Shown here piece by piece: positions 12,456 to 30,572 of a DNA stretch of 39,660 bases (within the stretch, counting starts at the first letter, position 1; each line of letters begins with the position of its first letter). The DNA is from an uncultured bacterium. GTDB lineage: Bacteria; Chloroflexota; Chloroflexia; Thermomicrobiales; Thermomicrobiaceae. The position numbers and the translations under genes were made by a program. The stretch spans positions 1 to 39,660 of the forward strand of contig CBDIWR010000361.1 in the NCBI GenBank assembly GCA_965285975.1, written 5' to 3'. The notes under the pieces were generated by a model. The model saw only the letters and a list, made by a program, of their open reading frames with translations, did no database searches and was not told the origin of the DNA.

Positions 12456-12875
12456 GCCCGCGACGGCGCCGTGCTCCCGATCCTGCACCTCAATGGTTAC
12501 AAGATCAGCGGTCCGACGGCGCTTGGTCGCGACAGCGACGACGACATCCGGGCCTTCTTGCAGGGCAACGGCTACGAGGTCTTTTTCGTTGAGGGCGACG
12601 AACCCTCGCTCGTGCACCAGTCGTTCTCGGCGACGCTCGACCACTGCTACGAGAGGATCTTGGAGATCCAACGAGCGGCCCGCGAGTACGGCGTCTTCGA
12701 GCGGCCGCGCTGGCCGGCTATCGTGCTGCGCACGCCGAAAGGCTGGACGGGACCGAAGGTCGTCGGTGGTCTTCCGGTAGAAGGCACCTTCCGCTCGCAC
12801 CAGGTACCGTTGGCCAGCGTGCGCGATAACCCGGAGCAACTCGCGCTTCTCGAAGCCTGGATGCGCAGCTACTAA
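12456..12875 (+). pseudogene. xfp: Internal fragment of phosphoketolase
   Basis: [21 protein letters not shown]...[19 protein letters not shown]...[12 protein letters not shown]...LEAWMRSY*; ~140 aa of an enzyme normally ~800 aa, truncated at both ends. Confidence 0.9.
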
Positions 12876-13163
12876 GCCGTGATCTGTAATTCACGCGTCG
12901 TCGTCTGAAATTGCCTTAGTCATCTGGTCGATTGAGCCGATTGGCTGGCCACCCAGTTCTTGTTCCACTTAGCCCATTCAAGAAGGTCTCCTCTTACACT
13001 CTGTCCGATGCAGTGCATCACTTTTTGGCTTGTGTTCCTGCAGGTAATCTGCGATAGTGGCCGAGAAACCCTAATAAGAGTTTCGAGTTGCTAAGCGTAC
13101 AGGAAGGCTTAGCTTCGGCGTTATCAGCTATATGGAAGTCCCAATATCGCAAGGTGAGAATCA

Positions 13164-13940
13164 ATGGGTCACTTGCGCCTCGGTCGGTTACCACGAACGA
13201 TGCATTGGCAAGGGGTTGTTGGGCTGCTCGATGACTCGCCTGACGACATTCCCGCCGTTGCCCGAGCTACGGTTACGGCGGCCGAAGCACGCATGCGCGA
13301 GTTGTCCCGAGATCCATCACTTACCTATTGCTTCTGGATACTCACCCGCGTCATGGTCGCGTCCCGGGAGTCGGACTTCCGCTCGGCCCTCCAAGGGCTC
13401 AGTATCAAGCCTGCATCTAGTGATTCGGCGCTGGCCTTCGTTACCGAGTTATCCGAGCAGGTACGGAATGAACTCACTGCCTATCCCCAATCTGGACCGT
13501 TTGGGGAGCTCGCATCGCTCGCATTGCGTCGGGCTCTGTCCGAAACAGCTGGTGTACACGGTCGATCACTCTTCGGCAGCTCCCTCGAAGACGTCCATCA
13601 TGCGTTTCGAAGCCACTCGTCCCCCGATCGTTTCGGCGATGTGGCGCGGCGATTCTTCGGTGACTTTCTCGCGCGAACGCTTCAATTCTTCGTTGACAAG
13701 GAACTGTCAAATCACGTTGGAAGTGGGGGTCAGCTTCGCGGTATTGAGGCAAGCCGGGAGTTTTCTGCGGCTCTGGATGTCTATACACGTCAGTCGGCCC
13801 GCATCGTCGAGGAGTTCGCATCAGGATGGTATGGCAAGCACAACTGGGAGTCCCAAGGAGCGATCAGCCGTGAGGAGGCGCAAGGCTTCGTCGCAGTCGC
13901 GCTGCGCAAACTCCGGATGGAACTGGTGCGGTCGACCTGA
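13164..13940 (+). CDS. Hypothetical helical protein, QatB-like partner of the QueC-family enzyme
   Basis: 258 aa, starts MGHLRLGRLP (Gly2); stop overlaps the next ATG (TGATG 13938-13942); size and position as for qatB; homology not demonstrated. Confidence 0.75.
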   Translation: MGHLRLGRLPRTMHWQGVVGLLDDSPDDIPAVARATVTAAEARMRELSRDPSLTYCFWILTRVMVASRESDFRSALQGLSIKPASSDSALAFVTELSEQVRNELTAYPQSGPFGELASLALRRALSETAGVHGRSLFGSSLEDVHHAFRSHSSPDRFGDVARRFFGDFLARTLQFFVDKELSNHVGSGGQLRGIEASREFSAALDVYTRQSARIVEEFASGWYGKHNWESQGAISREEAQGFVAVALRKLRMELVRST

Positions 13941-16000
13941 TGAGTGTTGTGCGTGCTCTGTTTCAATGCGACTCGGCAGAGATTCCGGTGGATCTTGCCG
14001 CCCAATCCTGGGATGTCCGTAAGCCAATTAATATGAATAACAGTACTAACGCATCGCTGAACCTCCACGCCCAAGGATTCGCCGCGAAGGTTTTGACTGC
14101 CGTCCGGAACCGGGCTGCCGACTTGATACGCATTGCCTCATATGCCTATGCTGCGGATCAGGAGGTCTCACGAGGAGGTGAGACTGATGTGTACGGTAGA
14201 AAGTGGCGGCGCCAACTCGTTCTCTGTGCTCCTGTGGCGGAACCAGACTTCTGGACAGATGCCTCGGTGATCTCAGGTCTTGAAGATGTCCTGCAGTTCC
14301 TGACAGGTGACACGTGGGAGTTTCATTTTAGCCGAACTCCACGCCGCCCTGTACAGATATCCTATCCTGTCGATGAACCGGAGCTTCTTGGCCGTCCCGA
14401 CGCGATAGTACTCTTTTCAGGTGGTGCTGACAGCTTATGCCTCGCAGTCGACTCAATTGGCATTCAGGGCCGTCGACCGCTACTGATCAGCCACACACCT
14501 GCACCCCATATTAGTGCTCGCCAGCGATCCTTGGCCGATCACCTGCGGTGCAGATTTCCGGAATGGTTCTTCCCTCACGTGAACTTCTCAATCCACCGCA
14601 TGAAGTCGGAAGCAGCCGATAACAGCCAACGCTCACGGGGTTTCCTATACGCCTGTCTCGGCGCAGTGGTGGCGAGTGAACTCAGCGTATCCGACGTGTT
14701 CCTCGGGGACAATGGTGTGATCAGTCTGAATCTTCCTATCAATGGGCAGTTCGTTGGCGCCCTAGCCAGCCGAGCGACACATCCGAAGTTCCAATACCTC
14801 TTCAACCGGTTCGTTGCCAACGTATTCAGCTGTCCGGTTAAAGTCACGAATCCGCTATGGGTAAGAACACGTCCGGAGACGCTAGAGGTTCTCAATTCGA
14901 CCAATTGCGGTGATCTCCTTCAGGAAACGACATCCTGCAGCCGTGCTCGTGGGCGCCCACAAAGTTCACCGCACTGTGGCTACTGTTCCCAGTGCGTCGA
15001 TCGCCGTTTCGGCTCGATCGCCGCTGGACTCGCAGAGCATGATCTCGGCGAACGATACGGCGTAGATATTTTTACTGATCCTTTGGATCAGGGCGAACAA
15101 CGCACCATTGCTGAGTCCTACGTTCGTTTTGCCCGCAATGTGCTCCAGACGTCGGAAGACGAGATGTTTGATGCATATCCTCAGCTGTTCGACGCATTGT
15201 GTCCCGGCGATCCATCGCAAGCCGAAACTGCTCAACAGCTCGTGAGCTTACTGAAACGTCACTCCGTCAGCGTTCATCAAACGCTGACGGGTATGATCCG
15301 GCGCCATAGCTCTGAACTGGCAGCGGGTACGGTTGCGGAGACGAGTTTGCTTCGGCTTGCAGTGGGAAGTGCGCCTAGAATCGTTTCTCCGTCTGATCAG
15401 GTTGGAAACTGCATCCGCCGGGCCGGCGATACCTGGTCTGCCACCTATACGGGTCGCACGATCCAGGTAAAACACGGCAAAGGTATCGCCTACATCGCCT
15501 ATTTGCTGACTCACCCCAATCAATCCATTAGGTCCATGGATCTTGTGGCGCTCGTTGACCCACCTGCTCAGAGTGATCTGAGTCGTAGGATGAGCGCAGA
15601 GCAAGCTAAAGCAGAGGATCTGACCACATCCGATATGAATGTCCAAGATGAGTTGTTCGATGACCAGACTCGACGCCAAATCAGGACTCGACTCGCTGAT
15701 CTTGAGCATGAACTTGTGAAGGCTAGATCTGCGCAGGATACAGATCGCGTCCAACGCCTTCAGAACGAAACCCTAGACCTCAAACAATATCTAAGATCAG
15801 GTACTGGCCTTGGTGGCCGTCCTCGGCCATTCACCAGCCCGGCTGAGAATGCCCGCCGCGCGGTCTCTAAGGCGATTCACCGAGCCATGGAGACTATTAG
15901 CACCTACCATCCACAACTTGGTCGTCACCTCGTAAGTAGCCTCAAACTCGGTGCCTCTTGTACCTACTCACCAGAATTACCAACCGATTGGAACAGCTAA
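13940..16000 (+). CDS. QatC-like QueC-family (PP-loop) protein with an extra C-terminal regulator-type domain
   Basis: YAADQ, LFSGGADS, SQRSRGFLY, DNGVISLNLP, SRATHP, NPL, TTSC...HCGYCSQCVDRR zinc site; ~200 extra residues after aa ~485. Confidence 0.88.
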   Translation: MSVVRALFQCDSAEIPVDLAAQSWDVRKPINMNNSTNASLNLHAQGFAAKVLTAVRNRAADLIRIASYAYAADQEVSRGGETDVYGRKWRRQLVLCAPVAEPDFWTDASVISGLEDVLQFLTGDTWEFHFSRTPRRPVQISYPVDEPELLGRPDAIVLFSGGADSLCLAVDSIGIQGRRPLLISHTPAPHISARQRSLADHLRCRFPEWFFPHVNFSIHRMKSEAADNSQRSRGFLYACLGAVVASELSVSDVFLGDNGVISLNLPINGQFVGALASRATHPKFQYLFNRFVANVFSCPVKVTNPLWVRTRPETLEVLNSTNCGDLLQETTSCSRARGRPQSSPHCGYCSQCVDRRFGSIAAGLAEHDLGERYGVDIFTDPLDQGEQRTIAESYVRFARNVLQTSEDEMFDAYPQLFDALCPGDPSQAETAQQLVSLLKRHSVSVHQTLTGMIRRHSSELAAGTVAETSLLRLAVGSAPRIVSPSDQVGNCIRRAGDTWSATYTGRTIQVKHGKGIAYIAYLLTHPNQSIRSMDLVALVDPPAQSDLSRRMSAEQAKAEDLTTSDMNVQDELFDDQTRRQIRTRLADLEHELVKARSAQDTDRVQRLQNETLDLKQYLRSGTGLGGRPRPFTSPAENARRAVSKAIHRAMETISTYHPQLGRHLVSSLKLGASCTYSPELPTDWNS

Positions 16001-16209
16001 GGTCGGGTTTCTCCCTATTCGCGCCATTGCATGGCGCGGACGCGCTACGCATGGTCCCATGTGCACCCTTCCGTGACGCGCCTAAAGAGTAGGGACATCA
16101 ACTCGGGTCGTACGCCTCCGTGTGAGAGCGACTGAACGGTGTCAGCCGTCACCGTTCGCGACCGCTCGTCGACGTCCCTCGACAATAGGTACGGGGATGA
16201 CGAGCACTC

Positions 16210-16431
16210 ATGACTCGACAAAGACCGACAAAGTCGCTCTTGGACCAAACGCTTGAGGTTTGGCAGTCGCGATCGTCACGGGTACTTACAGGTGAAGACG
16301 CACGTGAGATCGTCGAGAATGTCAGCGGCTTCTTTCAACTCCTCCTCAAGTGGGATGCCGAGGGAAGAGTATCGCCAACGGTAGATGGGGCTGACGATAG
16401 CGAGCCGACCAGTGAGAACCGGTGGGCTTGA
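16210..16431 (+). CDS. Small hypothetical protein (73 aa)
   Basis: LLDQTLEVWQSRSSRVLTGEDAREIVENVSGFFQLLLKW, helical pattern; TGATG coupling to the next gene. Confidence 0.7.
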   Translation: MTRQRPTKSLLDQTLEVWQSRSSRVLTGEDAREIVENVSGFFQLLLKWDAEGRVSPTVDGADDSEPTSENRWA

Positions 16432-17699
16432 TGAGTCTCTGTGATGACGTCGAGAGCGACGCATGGCGGATGGTGAATGACCGGTTGGCCATCAACGAGA
16501 GTGGCGATCATAGTGAAGCGTTGACTCTCACCCCACAGGTTCCGGGCCCAACCGTGATACAGCTGCATCTTCCCGGACTTGAGGATGTTCCCCTACCACG
16601 GCGTCGACGAATGAGCAGAGCGCGTCGACAGACGGAGCAGCTAAGCCTAGATCCACTCGTGGACACCTATCTTCTGCGTTTACGCAGTCGTGGAGCAGCA
16701 GTGAAGGGGTTGCAGGCGTATCGGTATCAACTTCGGGCCGTTGCACGGCTCGCTCAGAGCGCGGCTGGACACCCCGTCACTATGGGTGAGCTATTTTGCG
16801 ACCCATCTCTCCTTGGACGAGTACTGGTTGATGACATGGCACCAAACCATGGATCTCAGTTGTCGAAGTGGACGTTGGCCCAACGGCGCTCAGCTATCCG
16901 CAGCTTCGTGACACTCATGCGCCCTGAACTCTTCGACATTGCTAGCGCGGACCCTCACTTGCTGTTGAATCAAGCACTTCAAAGCGTCGCTGTGCGCATC
17001 GGCGCCGGTTACCGATTGACCGGTGGAACCCCTCGACAGCGCGGCGGCTATGCGCCACGCAGGGACGAGGTTCAGGCGGTTCTGAAGGCCGTCTCGACCG
17101 CAGAAGGGTTCCTAGGTCCGAGAAACCTTGCATTCTACGGAATTCTCGCGGCCACAGGTTCACGAGTTAACTCGCTGCGTGCGTTGGATAGCGGAAGTTG
17201 CGTTCAACTCCTAAACGGATGCATACGCCTGTTCTTGCATGAGAAAGGTAAACACGAACCACGCGAAGTCGAGCTGGGACGTGAATTATCGTCGGCGCTG
17301 CTCACCTATCGTGACATGTTCAATGAATGCGCGGCCCAGGCCGGCTGGAGGGTAAGGATCCAATTGGGCGAGTCCGGTCTTGTCTGGCGGCAACCGGGAG
17401 GTAAAGGATGGCGCTATCACGAAATTCTGAGAACACTGCGGGCGGGTTGTGCAACTGCCGAGGTGCTGGAGTTCTCTCCACATTCCCTCCGGAGAGCCTT
17501 TGCAAGCGATGCTGCTACTCTGCTTCCCCGCCACACGGTGGCACAGGCTGGAGGCTGGAAGGGACTCGAACGCTTGGATGACCATTACATTCAGCCTCGT
17601 GAAGGAACAATCTGGTCGAAGCTCGGGTGTATTGCGGCCCAGCGAACGACGCCTGAGATCGTGAAGGTAAAGACTGATGCACCAAGTGTCCCTGTTTGA
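16431..17699 (+). CDS. Tyrosine recombinase (catalytic residues present)
   Basis: TGSR, EKGK, PHSLRR, GGW, DDHY give R-K-H-R-W-Y; ATG 16431 overlaps the previous stop. Confidence 0.85.
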   Translation: MSLCDDVESDAWRMVNDRLAINESGDHSEALTLTPQVPGPTVIQLHLPGLEDVPLPRRRRMSRARRQTEQLSLDPLVDTYLLRLRSRGAAVKGLQAYRYQLRAVARLAQSAAGHPVTMGELFCDPSLLGRVLVDDMAPNHGSQLSKWTLAQRRSAIRSFVTLMRPELFDIASADPHLLLNQALQSVAVRIGAGYRLTGGTPRQRGGYAPRRDEVQAVLKAVSTAEGFLGPRNLAFYGILAATGSRVNSLRALDSGSCVQLLNGCIRLFLHEKGKHEPREVELGRELSSALLTYRDMFNECAAQAGWRVRIQLGESGLVWRQPGGKGWRYHEILRTLRAGCATAEVLEFSPHSLRRAFASDAATLLPRHTVAQAGGWKGLERLDDHYIQPREGTIWSKLGCIAAQRTTPEIVKVKTDAPSVPV

Positions 17700-18720
17700 T
17701 CACTTTGATCGGCAACCGAAAAACCGCGCTTTTGATTCGGAGTCAGAGCGTTTACTCAAGATTTTTGCTGAGAAGAGGAGCGCAGACGGCGCACATCCCC
17801 GTTCGGTCAAGCGCGAGGTGAGTCAACTCCGATCCCTCGCTGGTGAACTTCAGGTCGAGTCTGATCTGATTTCGCTTACTGTCCTGTTCCGCGATCTGAG
17901 ATTGCTTGCTCAGGCGCTGTGCGAGCCTCGTTCGTCAATTGCGCGTTCGACGGGTCGTGTCCGCTATGTAGCCGCGCGGCGTTTCATGGAATTTGTGGCA
18001 CCACTCCTCGGAAGGGATGCCCGTAGGGATCTGCTCACGCTGGATAGCTACCTTCCGGCGGGGCGTCGGACGGCTTGGCACTCGACAGGTATTGTCGTTG
18101 CCGGTGCCCCAAGCCGCCGAAGTCGACGGGCGGTCAGCCTGGACTGGTCGCACCTCATCCAACTCGTCGATACTGCATCAACGGCAGAAACATCAGTCCA
18201 AACTATTCGCAATGTCGCACTGGTGGCGCTTCATTGCTTCAGCGGACTCCGTCCGGAGGAAATAGTCCTACTCCAGTGGAAGGACATTGCGACCGATTAT
18301 TCGCCCTTCGATGATCGTCATCACTTCAAGGTGAGAGTGAAACGTGCCGGTCGGGATCTATGGCTACCGCTTGTGTCCCCGGCCGTGAAAGCAATTACCT
18401 CGTTGGCAACCTCGTTCGCATGGCGGTCCGATCCACGGTCAGGGCCACTCTTTGAAAGCCGGAATGGAGTTGGAAGACCGTTGGGGTATCGCGCAGTCCG
18501 GATGATCCTGAAGGAGGTCTGCCGAAGGGCAGGGTTACCGGCCGTTGAGGCGATCGATTTACGTGCCGCGTTTGCGTATGGACTCCGAATGCGCGGGCTT
18601 TCCGACCACGAAGTCGCCGCTGTCCTCGGATTGGCCCAGGTTCGTAGCCTGGACCGCCTACTGCGGCGACACATGGCATTGGATGCGCAGCGCAAAGTGC
18701 GCGAGATCCTTGACCTGTGA
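17677..18720 (+). CDS. Tyrosine recombinase-like protein, apparently catalytically inactive
   Basis: SGLRPEE..LQWKDI box I intact; box II reads IDLR (no His), LGL (no His/Trp), SLDRLL (no Tyr); 23-nt overlap with the previous gene. Confidence 0.82.
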   Translation: MHQVSLFDHFDRQPKNRAFDSESERLLKIFAEKRSADGAHPRSVKREVSQLRSLAGELQVESDLISLTVLFRDLRLLAQALCEPRSSIARSTGRVRYVAARRFMEFVAPLLGRDARRDLLTLDSYLPAGRRTAWHSTGIVVAGAPSRRSRRAVSLDWSHLIQLVDTASTAETSVQTIRNVALVALHCFSGLRPEEIVLLQWKDIATDYSPFDDRHHFKVRVKRAGRDLWLPLVSPAVKAITSLATSFAWRSDPRSGPLFESRNGVGRPLGYRAVRMILKEVCRRAGLPAVEAIDLRAAFAYGLRMRGLSDHEVAAVLGLAQVRSLDRLLRRHMALDAQRKVREILDL

Positions 18721-18819: not shown

Positions 18820-19080
18820 ATGATGAGTGACGTACATACGTATCTGCAGATACGGGATGCCGCGCGCTATTTGGGTGTGTCGACCGCGACACTACGAAAC
18901 TGGGATCGAGCCGGAAAGATACAGGCCTATCGTCATCCGGTTAACAACTACCGATTGTTCAGCTGTGACGATCTCAGGTCAATCTTGCGTCAGATTGAGC
19001 AGTCGCAGTCGAAGGCTGTTCCGGCTGGCGCTCCTTCGGGACAAGAGCACCAGACGCGTGATGAGGAGATCCGTCAATGA
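18820..19080 (+). CDS. MerR-type HTH / excisionase-like protein
   Basis: YLQIRDAARYLGVSTATLRNWDRAGKI.AYRHPVNNYRLF; GGAG RBS; ATGA overlap with the recombinase. Confidence 0.88.
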   Translation: MMSDVHTYLQIRDAARYLGVSTATLRNWDRAGKIQAYRHPVNNYRLFSCDDLRSILRQIEQSQSKAVPAGAPSGQEHQTRDEEIRQ

Positions 19081-20639
19081 GGACACGGCGAGGTAGCGGT
19101 GCACGACTTGGCTCGACTGAGCGGCGCCTAGCCGTAATCTACGCGCGTGTGTCCTCTAAAGAGCAGGAGCGAGAAGGTTTCTCTGTCCCGGCTCAGCTCC
19201 GCCTTCTCCAGGAATACGCCCGGGAACAGGGGTTCATCGTTCTTGAGGAGTTCGTCGATGTCGAAACTGCGAAACAAAGCGGTCGAACTGGCTTCGGTCA
19301 GATGGTGCGCTTTCTTAAGCGTCGATCCAACTCGTGCGGTGTGATTCTGGTCGAGAAAACTGACCGACTTTACCGAAACCTCAAAGACTGGGTCACGATC
19401 GATGAGTTGAACGTGGAAATCCACTTCGCCAAAGAGGGTGCCGTGCTGTCGGATGACTCCCGTTCATCTGAGAAGTTTATGCACGGCATCAAGGTCTTAA
19501 TGGCGAAGAACTACATCGACAACCTGTCAGAGGAAGTCCGTAAGGGCATGACTGAGAAGGCTGAAGAAGGAATCTGGCCGAGTCGCGCTCCTCTAGGCTA
19601 TCAAAATGTGGAGCGGGTTGATGGAAAGCGGGTCATCGCTCTTGACCCTGATGTGGCCCCGCTGGTTCGTCAGATCTTTGAGTGGTATGGCACGGGACGA
19701 TATTCTCTGACCGATCTTACCAAGCTAGCATCTGATGCGGGGCTTCGCTTTCGGAGGGGCGCAGAGGTGCCCAAGTCGACTGTCCACAAGATGCTTCGCA
19801 GTCCGATCTATCAGGGTGACGTTGTTTGGGGTAACCGAACCTATCCAGGGATTCACGAGCCGATCGTGTCGAGAGATTTGTGGGCCAGAGTCCAGGATAT
19901 TCTGGAGGGTCGCGCCGGGAGACATCCACGGTCACGCCGGGAGTTCGCTTTTGCCGGTCTCTTGACTTGCGGTCATTGTGGCTGTGCGTTGACTGCGGAG
20001 ATCAAGAAGGGTCGATACACCTACTATCGGTGCACCGGCTACCGCGGAAAGTGCGGAGAGCCGTATGTCAGAGAAGAAGTGCTCGAGGAGCAGTTCAGTG
20101 AGATCCTTGGTGACCTGCAGCTGGATGCTGATCTGCTTGACTGGCTGACTATGGCGCTCAAAGAAAGCTTTACGGATACGCAGCGCTTTCATGCTGAATC
20201 TATTTCTCGGCTGCGAGAGGAGCACGATCGTTTGCAGCGGCGGCTGGATGCAATGTACGTGGATAAGCTCGACAGTCGTGTCGATGAGGGAACCTATGAG
20301 CGGTTATCACGTGCTTGGCGAGCGGAGCAGGACCGGGTACTGCAGGCTATAGCGCAACACCAGGACGCGAACCAGATCTATCTCGATGACGGCGTGCGCC
20401 TCCTTAGGCTTGCGAACCGATGCCAGGAGCTGTTCGCCCAACAACCCGTCATGGAGAAGCGAAAGCTGCTCAATTTTGTACTTTCGAACTCCTCCTGGAA
20501 ACATGGTACGTTGACACCGGTCTTCCGAAAACCCTTTGATTTGCTTGTCCAGACAAAGAAAATGGCTACTCGCCCGGAGCAACAAAAAACCGCCGGAAGC
20601 CTCTCCGGCGGCAAGTATGATATTTGGCTCCCCGAGTAG
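19077..20639 (+). CDS. Large serine recombinase (integrase)
   Basis: AVIYARVSS catalytic Ser, DRLYR, APLGY, HEPIVS, CGHCG...YYRC zinc ribbon, coiled coil; ends WLPE* inside the tRNA. Confidence 0.95.
   Translation: MRTRRGSGARLGSTERRLAVIYARVSSKEQEREGFSVPAQLRLLQEYAREQGFIVLEEFVDVETAKQSGRTGFGQMVRFLKRRSNSCGVILVEKTDRLYRNLKDWVTIDELNVEIHFAKEGAVLSDDSRSSEKFMHGIKVLMAKNYIDNLSEEVRKGMTEKAEEGIWPSRAPLGYQNVERVDGKRVIALDPDVAPLVRQIFEWYGTGRYSLTDLTKLASDAGLRFRRGAEVPKSTVHKMLRSPIYQGDVVWGNRTYPGIHEPIVSRDLWARVQDILEGRAGRHPRSRREFAFAGLLTCGHCGCALTAEIKKGRYTYYRCTGYRGKCGEPYVREEVLEEQFSEILGDLQLDADLLDWLTMALKESFTDTQRFHAESISRLREEHDRLQRRLDAMYVDKLDSRVDEGTYERLSRAWRAEQDRVLQAIAQHQDANQIYLDDGVRLLRLANRCQELFAQQPVMEKRKLLNFVLSNSSWKHGTLTPVFRKPFDLLVQTKKMATRPEQQKTAGSLSGGKYDIWLPE
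20581..20611 (-). terminator. Intrinsic terminator for tRNA-Asn, encoded inside the recombinase CDS
   Basis: Minus strand CCGCCGGA-GAGGCT-TCCGGCGG-TTTTTTGTT, 13 nt after the CCA end. Confidence 0.8.
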
Positions 20640-20699
20640 GACTCGAACCTACAACCTTGCGGTTAACAGCCGCCTGCTCTACCATTGAGCTATCGGGGA
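20625..20699 (-). tRNA. tRNA-Asn (GTT)
   Basis: TCCCCGATAGCTCAATGGTAGAGCAGGCGGCT-GTT-AACCGCAAGGTTGTAGGTTCGAGTCCTACTCGGGGAGCCA forms a full cloverleaf with encoded CCA. Confidence 0.97.
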
Positions 20700-28478: not shown

Positions 28479-30572
28479 CTATCGTTCCGCCGGCTCAGGT
28501 AGTTGGACCTTGATATGGAGCTCTTGGAGTTGCTCCTCATCGATGGTTGAGGGGGCAGCCAGCATCAGATCCTGTGCTCCCTGGTTCTTCGGGAATGCGA
28601 TCACATCCCGGATGGTGTCCTCTCCGGCTAGCAGCATCAGTGTCCGGTCGATCCCCGGCGCGATCCCGCCGTGCGGCGGCGCACCGAACTCAAGTGCCCG
28701 CAGGAGGTGGCCAAAGCGCTCCTCGACATCATCAACACGGTAGCCCATGATCTCGAAGACTTTGGTCTGGACATCACGCTGGTGGATACGGATACTCCCA
28801 CTACCGAGCTCGACCCCGTCCAACACGATGTCGTAGGCCTTGGCACGAACGCGGCCGGGATCGATATCGAGCAACGCCAGGTCTTCATCCATCACCGCAG
28901 TGAATGGGTGATGGGCGGCATCCCAGCGCGAGCGCTCGGCTTGCCACTCGAAGAGTGGCGGTTCGACGACCCAACAGAAGGCGTGGACGCCCTGATTGAT
29001 CAGGTCGAGTTCTCGTCCGAGATGATCGCGTAGCCGACCCATGACCGGCGCTGCAGTTCCCACCTGGTCGGCGACCAGAAGCAACAGATCGCCCGGCTTC
29101 CCGCCTAGCCGCTCCGCCATTGCCGCGACTTCCTCCTGAGAGAGGAACTTGGCGATCGGCGACCGGGGGACTAGCGCGCCAGACTCGTCCGTTTCCAGCC
29201 CGATCCAGACCAGACCCTTGGCGCCGAATGATTTGACATAATTCGTGAGCCGGTCGGCATGGCTCCGGCCAATATCCGCCAGACCCGGGACCGCGATGCC
29301 GCGTACGACGCCGCCATCCGCGACGGTACCGGCAAAGACGGCGAAGCGGCTTTCAGCCACGATATCACTGACATCACCGATCTCCAGTCCGAACCGGAGA
29401 TCCGGCTTGTCAGAGCCGTAGCGGAGCATCGCTTCGGAGTAGAGGAGCCGCGGGAACGGCTTCTGGAGGATCGGCTTGTCCGAGAGGGATTCGAACATCT
29501 CGGTAAAAAATCCCTCGGTGAGCGTCATCACGTCATCCATCTCGACGAATGACATCTCAAGATCGAGTTGAGTGAACTCCGGCTGGCGGTCGGCCCGCTG
29601 GTCTTCGTCCCGGAAGCAGCGGGCGATCTGGTAATAGCGGTCCATCCCGGCGACCATCAGCAACTGCTTGAGGATCTGCGGTGACTGGGGCAGTGCGTAG
29701 AACTCGCCAGGGTAGATCCGGCTGGGCACTACGTAGTCACGGGCGCCCTCCGGCGTGCTCTTGACCAGGACCGGTGTCTCGATCTCAAGAAAGTCGCGCT
29801 CGTTGAGGTAGTTCCGAAGAAACGTCATCATCCTATGCCGCAGGATCAGGTTGTTCTGCATCCGTGGACGGCGTAGATCCAGATAACGGAATTCGAGACG
29901 TAACGACTCGTCAATCGCCACCTCTTCGTTGATGTAGAAGGGGGGCGTCCGCGATGTGTTGAGCACAATGATCTGGTCGGCATCGACCTCGATCTCGCCG
30001 GTGGCCATCGCGGGGTTTTCGGTCCCCGCCGGGCGCTTTACGACCGTGCCGGTAACTGAGACGACGAACTCGTTCCGGACCATCCTTGCGGCGTCGAACG
30101 CGTCGGCGGACAACTCCGGGTTGGCCACCACCTGGGTAATGCCGTAGCGATCGCGAACGTCGAGAAAAATGAGCCGACCATGCTCCCGGCGCCGGTTGAC
30201 CCAACCCTTGAGGGTCACGGTCTCGCCGGTGTCGTCGAGCCGGAGTTCTCCGCATGAGGCATAGCCGCGCCGCCCGGCACGTTCCAGGAGCGTGGCCTCA
30301 CCTGACACCTTCCCGTTTGGATCAACACCATCATCCGGCGTGGCGAGCAGGATGACATCCACGCCCAGCCCGCTGGCGATTCGCGACAGGACGGTGAAGG
30401 AAGGGACGCTTTGCCCGCCCTCAAGCCGCGATAGGTAGGAGACGGAGATCCCGGTGCGATTGGCCAAGCCGGCCCGCGAGATCCCCTGCTCCTCACGGAG
30501 CCGCCGGATCTTGGGGCCAATGTGCTGTCGCACCGCTTTGCGCGGCTCTGGAGCGGCAGATTGCCTGCTCAT
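28479..30572 (-). CDS. aspS: Aspartate-tRNA ligase with an N-terminal XRE HTH fusion
   Basis: [51 protein letters not shown]; first ~75 aa are an HTH_3/XRE pattern in the same open frame. Confidence 0.95.

Follow-up and report, generated by a model that had tools for sequence, protein, structure and literature searches.

What does a QatB/QatC-like gene pair do when it stands apart from the other genes of the QatABCD defence system? The question is raised by an uncultured bacterium of the Thermomicrobiaceae (Chloroflexota; GenBank assembly GCA_965285975.1, contig CBDIWR010000361.1), of which positions 1 to 39,660, the whole stretch analysed, are called the window below. Such a pair lies at 13164 to 16000. 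Its proteins have the QatB and QatC folds, residue 2 of the partner (Gly2) and the catalytic residues of the enzyme are invariant, qatA and qatD are absent, the C-terminal tail of the enzyme has been exchanged repeatedly, and tail-specific DNA arrays head early operons. We consider it probable that this QatB/QatC-derived module without QatA and QatD is a sensor-regulator of its mobile element, in which modification of Gly2 is wired to induction of the element. The features concerned are:

13151-13157, + strand: ribosome-binding site of gene 1 (AAGGTGA), 6 nt 5' of 13164
13164-13940, + strand: gene 1, 258 amino acids (aa), N-terminus MGHLRLGRLP; all-helical partner of the QatB fold, with Gly2 as predicted acceptor
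13940-16000, + strand: gene 2, 686 aa; QatC-like core plus C-terminal tail
13940-15364, + strand: gene 2 residues 1-475, QatC-like PP-loop ATP pyrophosphatase with N- and C-terminal extensions and four zinc cysteines (C333, C346, C349, C352)
15404-16000, + strand: gene 2 residues 489-686, the type-1 tail, a predicted OmpR/PhoB-type winged helix with a helical-hairpin insert at about 571-631
16021-16083, + strand: three degenerate 17-bp palindromes starting at 16021, 16042 and 16063, with exact 21-bp spacing and GCCT after the last; predicted binding array of the tail

The original prediction described two translationally coupled genes, the first starting M-G-H and the second with motifs of QatC and not of housekeeping QueC, as cargo of an integrative element with no KAP ATPase, TatD, cyclase, TGT, QueD or QueE nearby. 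This description holds. The genes overlap as TGATG (13938-13942), every named motif is present in gene 2 (SGGADS 160-165, QRSR 230-233, NGVISLN 258-264, SRATHP 277-282 and CGYCSQC 346-352), and none of the neighbours listed was found among the 34 open reading frames (ORFs) of the window scanned with Pfam. Because an in-frame TGA (13155-13157, within the ribosome-binding site) lies three codons 5' of 13164 and a ribosome-binding site precedes the start, Met1-Gly2 is the true beginning of gene 1. Overlooked were the last 200 residues of gene 2, which hold the winged helix, and the repeat array 3' of the gene. Both frames are intact, with 84% and 77% identity to a close intact relative, and the nearest named relatives are Chloroflexota/Thermomicrobia. 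A Dpd DNA-modification or queuosine role was rejected, as the neighbourhood showed no TGT/DpdA, QueD or QueE.

Gene 1 is homologous to QatB, though its N-terminal tail is far shorter, and it represents no new type of partner. It has no Pfam, NCBIfam or PHROG match, PADLOC gives a weak BrxA row only (E 0.031), and a search of the ESM Atlas returned unnamed clusters only. The homology emerges from its AlphaFold2 model (pLDDT 87): VIA-align, run on the chains listed by Foldseek, aligned QatB (9y01_A) at Z 13.3 (rmsd 4.0, 210 of 215 residues, 9% identity); the best unrelated chain after it reached Z 5.5. Foldseek itself gave this QatB chain a probability of 0.97 and TM scores of 0.51/0.59 at E 0.45, and returned nothing at E 0.001; in a wide VIA-align comparison with 48,161 representatives QatB was not listed and the best Z was 5.4. 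HHalign against four QatB sequences gave E 3.6e-4 and a probability of 37%. In QatB the N-terminus is MGTS, carried on a flexible tail of 30-90 residues. Gene 1 begins MGH, residue 7 of its model aligns with QatB residue 64, and about 12 residues precede helix 1, so that by the model it lacks the long flexible tail. In E. coli this tail of QatB binds QatD (PMC13639016), and the short tail of gene 1 fits the absence of QatD.

Alignment, suggested at the outset as a check on Gly2, found this residue in 115/115 gene 1 homologues that cover the start (5 of 120 lack the region), in 66/66 copies at loci located via gene 2, and in 143/143 representatives (7 of 150 do not cover the start). The gene 1 profile matched 1,795 clusters at 50% identity, 610 of them at E 1e-30; the more distant matches are putative.

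The core of gene 2 matches PADLOC QatC at E 3.6e-59 and NCBIfam QatC at 205.1 bits, under the 280-bit cut-off of that equivalog model. With canonical QueC (TIGR00364) it scores 14 bits vs a cut-off of 150. Two solved QatC chains were matched at E 8e-35 and 1e-32, and Foldseek with the core model gave QatC 9y01_B at E 3.7e-20. None of the 105 aligned enzymes departs from S160, S165, R231, R233 or the four cysteines. In the pocket, the invariant Thr pair of QatC (T278/T280) aligns with S277/A279 of gene 2; across the 105 enzymes the first position is Ser in 72 and Thr in 33, and the second Ser in 48, Thr in 39, Gly in 9 and Ala in 8.

The C-terminal tail points to DNA binding. VIA-align of residues 489-686 returned eleven OmpR/PhoB/ToxR-type domains (BaeR, GlnR, CssR, VicR, CpxR, ArlR, AdeR, VanR, KdpE, CadC and ToxR) at Z 7.7-8.9, which is moderate, over 83-94 residues with rmsd 2.8-3.4. 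The N-terminal receiver domain of the OmpR/PhoB class is missing in gene 2, the N-terminus being QatC-like. No Pfam match was found for the type-1 tail; when tail profiles were compared with PDB sequences, type 1 gave helical-hairpin noise only, type 3 nothing and type 5 weak OmpR-family matches (E 0.025-1.4). Among 70 tails scored from GTDB loci there are 19 of type 1, 12 of nuclease type (11 match PF18742), 9 short winged-helix-like, 11 alphaproteobacterial OmpR-like and some smaller classes; other tails match HTH_17, Trans_reg_C, sigma region 4 or DpnII-MboI. Two of the tail alignments (A4, A5) varied too much to be scanned by pattern. On the core tree the tail changes 18 times vs a minimum of 12, with six changes for type 1 and four for the nuclease: the tail has been swapped repeatedly across the clade.

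Beyond this family, the type-1 tail domain ends AAA_16/TPR ATPase proteins (PF13191 in 22 of 28 tail matches). A search of 301 genomes, which had no positive control, returned no stand-alone type-3 tail, and all five viral matches of the type-5 tail are fused to the core or cut there. At one locus (L204:1158-2558, + strand) the type-1 tail sits on an unrelated N-terminal domain that is rich in cysteine and matches no PHROG, and the same array lies 5' of a serine recombinase gene; this hints that element regulators with interchangeable sensors form a wider family. In the nuclease-tailed sister form (L002, L008, L012, L020, L023, L024, L027, L029, L030, L033, L035, L077 and L084) a PD-(D/E)XK nuclease (PF18742, DpnII-MboI-like) is fused where qatD would stand, sometimes within restriction-modification clusters (L008, L033). 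This form is a candidate two-gene defence system; on the tree it branches deeply, and it may be ancestral. Two loci have a small helical tail outside the assigned families (L059:12181-12627 and L070:3255-3692); in L059 a SMODS cyclase and an S_4TM effector, a cyclic-oligonucleotide-based anti-phage signalling system (CBASS), lie two genes downstream on the opposite strand. Acidobacterial loci (L031, L037, L040, L042 and L044) have tails of 390-430 residues ending in differing helix-turn-helix (HTH)-like domains, and in L042 direct repeats of 10-11 bp follow gene 2.

The pair belongs to a large clade. Canonical qat loci (L081-L083, L085), duplicates (L089, L096) and fragments (L093, L097) were dropped before the counts. 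The enzyme lies directly 3' of gene 1 in 76 of the 80 GTDB loci (45 of the 80 have at least 5 kb of flank on both sides), and gene 1 precedes the enzyme in 66 of 68 metagenome loci that were located via gene 2 and have enough flank. Using profiles built from four reference qat operons, we found QatA in 0/80 GTDB and 0/80 metagenome loci, with a profile that had no positive control, and QatD in 0/160, with a profile that detects the host's housekeeping TatD at E 9.6e-24. Only 8 of 51 host genomes have the Pfam KAP domain (PF07693) at all, and G000 has none. These neighbourhoods bear out the earlier view of a stand-alone pair as opposed to a degraded qat locus. In a quick tree with only four QatC outgroup sequences the clade is separate from them with support 100. 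The family spans many phyla, with cultured environmental carriers such as Hoeflea sp. Naph1 and Magnetospirillum sp. SS-4; in the phylum of the host, 7 of the 401 genomes sampled have it. Several relatives are frameshifted. The pair defines a large clade that is related to QatABCD yet outside its defining features (qatA, qatD, MGTS and the model cut-off), and current models either overlook it or give it a wrong label.

The array is the predicted binding site of the fused tail. Its type-1 motif, a consensus picked from the 19 type-1 loci themselves, is GC[GT]AC-N7-GT[AC]GC, repeated every 20-22 bp (about 21) and followed after the last copy by GCCT. These loci hold 26 array sites vs 5.2 in shuffled sequence, and other tail types have no comparable enrichment. 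Among held-out metagenome loci, near-duplicates included, 22 of 44 type-1 loci score at least 10 vs 0 of 27 others. Thermomicrobial sub-clades have half-sites GTGAA, GTAAG or GGGAA, with palindromy kept. Type-5 tails go with a distinct motif, GTCAC[AG], which 18 of 22 loci contain (44 sites, against 2.9 after shuffling), and several type-3 loci have 11-bp direct repeats; a periodicity test was positive in 5 of 9 of the latter and negative for the window. Matrices trained without the window rank its array first of 5.99 million genome positions with three sites (15.7 vs 13.1) and 113th with two. Scans for sigma-70 promoters and terminators gave chance-level results. After the array of the window (16080-16100) and of other type-1 loci comes a second conserved element, CGCCT-N7-TRARGG, which could often pair back (mean stem 5.0 vs 3.7 shuffled) and could be a promoter -10 box or an RNA hairpin.

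Scanned for by DNA sequence alone, the array turned up in 76 viral stretches; where the flank was long enough to judge (71), it stands ahead of genes for excisionase, replication or a recombinase in 58. The array directly follows the pair in 16 of 72 viral records. Of 60 other records 50 were searched, and 28 encode the tail elsewhere; in 20/20 of the fetched records that carry the tail apart from the array, it is in one frame with a QatC-like core. Because the array stays with the early operon even where the pair lies kilobases off, it belongs to that operon and not to the 3' end of gene 2.

The 381 neighbours were annotated by Pfam through 255 cluster representatives. Within the next 3.5 kb, a gene for an excisionase, primase, replication protein or recombinase follows in the same direction at 39 of 54 winged-helix loci vs 0 of 10 nuclease loci (p 2e-5, a value overstated by kinship and by marker genes drawn from the same neighbourhoods). 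On IMG/VR contigs the pair heads early operons. The operons presumed to be regulated contain excisionase, primase and recombinase genes, often then phage structural genes, and a LexA-like or XRE repressor gene often adjoins gene 1. Many loci have clustered defence genes next to the pair, and nuclease-tailed forms lie near restriction-modification, HEPN and Schlafen genes. In a redundant prophage family of IMG/VR records (L193-type) the enzyme, gene 1 and a LexA-like repressor are on one strand, and DUF2924, the serine recombinase, the array and the excisionase are on the other.

The following sequence of events would connect these observations. In the dormant state a QatB/QatC-like complex would be made, with removal of Met and formation of the complex as expected by analogy with QatBC. 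A trigger derived from phage or stress would act on the enzyme, which would adenylate a small carboxylate and, at the expense of ATP, ligate it to Gly2 of the partner. The state of Gly2 would then switch the fused winged helix, presumed to bind the array and to be coupled to the enzyme, and this switching would start the excision and recombination genes of the element. The nuclease-tailed relatives would be the plain defence form, with the fused PD-(D/E)XK nuclease in the place of QatD. OmpR/ToxR-type proteins mostly activate. For this reason, and because a separate LexA-like or XRE repressor is often found beside gene 1, activation is mildly favoured over repression. More tentatively, such modules may be widespread switches of prophages and integrative elements, in which a QatBC immune core, repeatedly fused to the element's own transcription factor, senses an incoming phage, possibly by ligating a metabolite of phage origin to Gly2, and starts excision and replication. 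The original prediction had expected a different output and possibly a new defence or regulatory system. That output can be identified as a fused winged helix with a cognate array, and regulation of the element is favoured over direct killing.

Several observations weigh against a sensor-regulator. QatB needs a tail of 30-90 residues, and gene 1 has about 12 with which its N-terminus would have to enter the active site; nor is fusion alone proof that catalysis gates the tail. The array of the window is degenerate (single sites of 7.1, 1.3 and 0.7 bits), ranks first only under the three-site model, which was chosen after three copies had been seen, and is negative in the generic periodicity test, which is positive in only 4 of 19 type-1 loci. 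Half of the held-out type-1 loci (22 of 44) score below 10; some have variant half-sites, and the others probably have their array elsewhere. The viral array matches are redundant and collapse to a few prophage families, and linked DNA and protein co-vary by descent too. Finally, at 15 of 54 winged-helix loci no core gene of an element follows, and the context count relies on marker genes from the same neighbourhoods and on kin that are not independent.

Of the other explanations, the one that survives best, while still unlikely, gives the two halves independent jobs. QatBC would defend alone, and the tail would be an ordinary regulator of the element, fused when the cassette landed upstream, so that catalysis would not control DNA binding. 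QatBC without other Qat proteins does defend against some phages, and G2D abolishes this defence (PMC13279940). The tail and array occur without QatC in L204, the tail also ends AAA_16 proteins, and the clustered defence genes beside the pair would suit a cassette with a defence function of its own. However, unrelated DNA-binding tails have been gained many times, and the tail has stayed fused even at loci whose array is not next to the pair; such recurrence and persistence are unexpected of an accident.

Rather less probable is an abortive defence, in which infection would cause the tail to turn on recombinase or toxic genes, or to jam the DNA, aborting the cell with no benefit of escape to the element. 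The nuclease-tailed sisters (12 of the 70 scored tails), with their restriction-modification, HEPN and Schlafen neighbours, are in keeping with this, as is the kinase-kinase-phosphatase system KKP, which connects prophage control with abortive defence (PMC11341870). The operons, however, hold genes for excisionase, primase and recombinase, in many cases with phage structural genes after them, and not toxins. The mechanism also overlaps that of a sensor-regulator, from which it differs in outcome only.

The original prediction was of a minimal two-gene protein-deazaguanylation module. The stand-alone QatB/QatC-like pair with its invariant Gly2 stands; the chemistry does not follow. That the module uses the host's CDG exactly as Cap9 does is very improbable, and deazaguanine is doubtful as a donor for Gly2. 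The Tyr/Asp pair that reads deazaguanine in QueC and Cap9, with residue roles as given in PMC13279940, is missing from the pocket of gene 2, where the family has S/T and S/T/G/A. None of three Qat papers could reconstitute QatC activity in vitro (PMC13279940, PMC13376578, PMC13639016); QatC had no activity with CDG in the two that tried it (PMC13376578, PMC13639016) and bound no DNA (PMC13376578). One of these reports detected an NDG-modified QatB peptide by LC-MS/MS, which would favour the idea, yet saw no shift in intact mass (PMC13639016). The window's host itself has a canonical QueC (contig C314) and a QueD-like gene. Across 51 host genomes, many of them incomplete, canonical QueC is present in 23 and a PTPS-family gene in 39, and neither is found in the complete genome G045 or the chromosome-level G005. 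With the S277/A279 pocket, the failed reconstitution and the hosts without pathway genes against it, deazaguanylation is not established; it also leaves the tail unaccounted for. It can be compatible with a sensor-regulator if the phage supplies the base. A functionless remnant of qatABCD, suggested by the degenerate array and the frameshifted relatives, is scarcely credible and already largely refuted by the intact frames with their close intact relative, the invariant catalytic residues, the 1,795 clusters and the clade-wide absence of qatA and qatD.

As to its setting, the pair is carried by an island of more than 21 kb that includes the window's left part and has its insertion site at the 3' end of a tRNA-Asn gene. 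The empty site is present in a genome of the same genus (G351), and the flank of that site maps to contig C324. Within the window itself there was no att repeat, the other junction being on C324. That the target is a Q-tRNA gene, considered as a functional hint, was treated as coincidence. The genes behind the array are:

16210-16431, + strand: small ORF of 73 aa that opens the operon behind the array; in L054 the pair is followed by a relative
16431-17699, + strand: tyrosine recombinase-like gene 1 (Pfam PF00589, PHROG integrase)
17677-18720, + strand: tyrosine recombinase-like gene 2 (Pfam, PHROG)
18820-19080, + strand: MerR/HTH_17 protein, likely excisionase or directionality factor (phrog_66 excisionase, E 1.4e-9; Pfam)
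19077-20639, + strand: large serine recombinase, with its stop codon inside the tRNA gene
20625-20699, - strand: tRNA-Asn(GTT), integration target; the last 9 nt (20625-20633) recur at C324:1119-1127

The second tyrosine recombinase-like gene seems to lack the catalytic HxxR histidine and C-terminal tyrosine. Two tyrosine-recombinase-like genes and a serine recombinase follow the module in four Chloroflexota elements with differing tail types (window 16431-18720, L021, L022 and L072). Just 5' of gene 1 (12471-12875) lies an internal phosphoketolase fragment (XFP_N positions 193-326), with no other copy in the assembly, and at this fragment the GC content falls from about 63% to 55%. The island cargo also includes transposase-like remnants at 645-2846 (a 407-aa minus-strand ORF and a DUF772 fragment) and GH15 and MFS genes; another GH15-like fragment lies at C324:1-1120. 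Elsewhere in the window (28479-30572, - strand) an aspartyl-tRNA synthetase frame has an N-terminal XRE-type HTH (Pfam HTH_3/HTH_31, residues 18-76), possibly a fusion or a lost stop codon.

With QatABCD (PDB 9y01/9y02, 9zee and 9vlk) the pair shares the two folds, the gene order, the SGGxDS loop, RxR, the NGxxSLN loop, HP, the zinc cysteines, a Gly2 of the essential type and, less clearly, small hydroxyl residues in the pocket. It differs in its low identity (9% for gene 1 and, by structural alignment, about 23% for gene 2), in having MGH instead of MGTS and an N-terminal tail of about 12 and not 30-90 residues, in the lack of qatA and qatD, and in forming a clade separate from the four QatC sequences compared. 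Its enzyme also has a fused, exchangeable DNA-binding or nuclease domain, whereas QatC is described as binding no DNA (PMC13376578). Like Cap9-CdnD of type IV CBASS, it couples a QueC-family enzyme to a partner starting Met-Gly; unlike that system, it has no CD-NTase, Cap10/TGT or effector and no Tyr/Asp pocket, and it has QatC-type extensions. Canonical QueC is a protein of about 220 aa with queD/queE neighbours, in contrast to the 686-aa gene 2 (14 vs 150 bits). The OmpR/PhoB/ToxR and AAA_16/TPR regulators share the winged-helix fold and repeats about two helical turns apart ahead of an operon, and the AAA_16 ATPases have the identical tail family at the C-terminus; here, however, the input is a ligase and its substrate, not a receiver, membrane sensor or ATPase, and the sites are tandem palindromes. 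KKP is likewise a prophage protein-modification module joining lysogeny control and anti-phage defence (PMC11341870), but its proteins are unrelated and its target for phosphorylation is a host silencer; in the present pair the enzyme itself carries the DNA-binding domain, which comes with a separate array.

The genes of the QatC cluster have qatA/qatD nearby in only about 34% of cases, and no such fusion is described in the accessible text of the paper reporting this (PMC13329287). A description of the QatC-tail fusion family was not found in the literature searched, with most subscription papers outside its coverage. The structural papers of 2026 leave open what triggers QatBC, which small molecule it uses and what its output is, and a natural fusion to a DNA-binding domain with a predicted target array turns these questions into a reporter assay. 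If the proposal is true, an immune enzyme core has been re-used as a modular signalling input, and the module would be a new route to the induction of prophages and islands beside SOS and anti-repressors.

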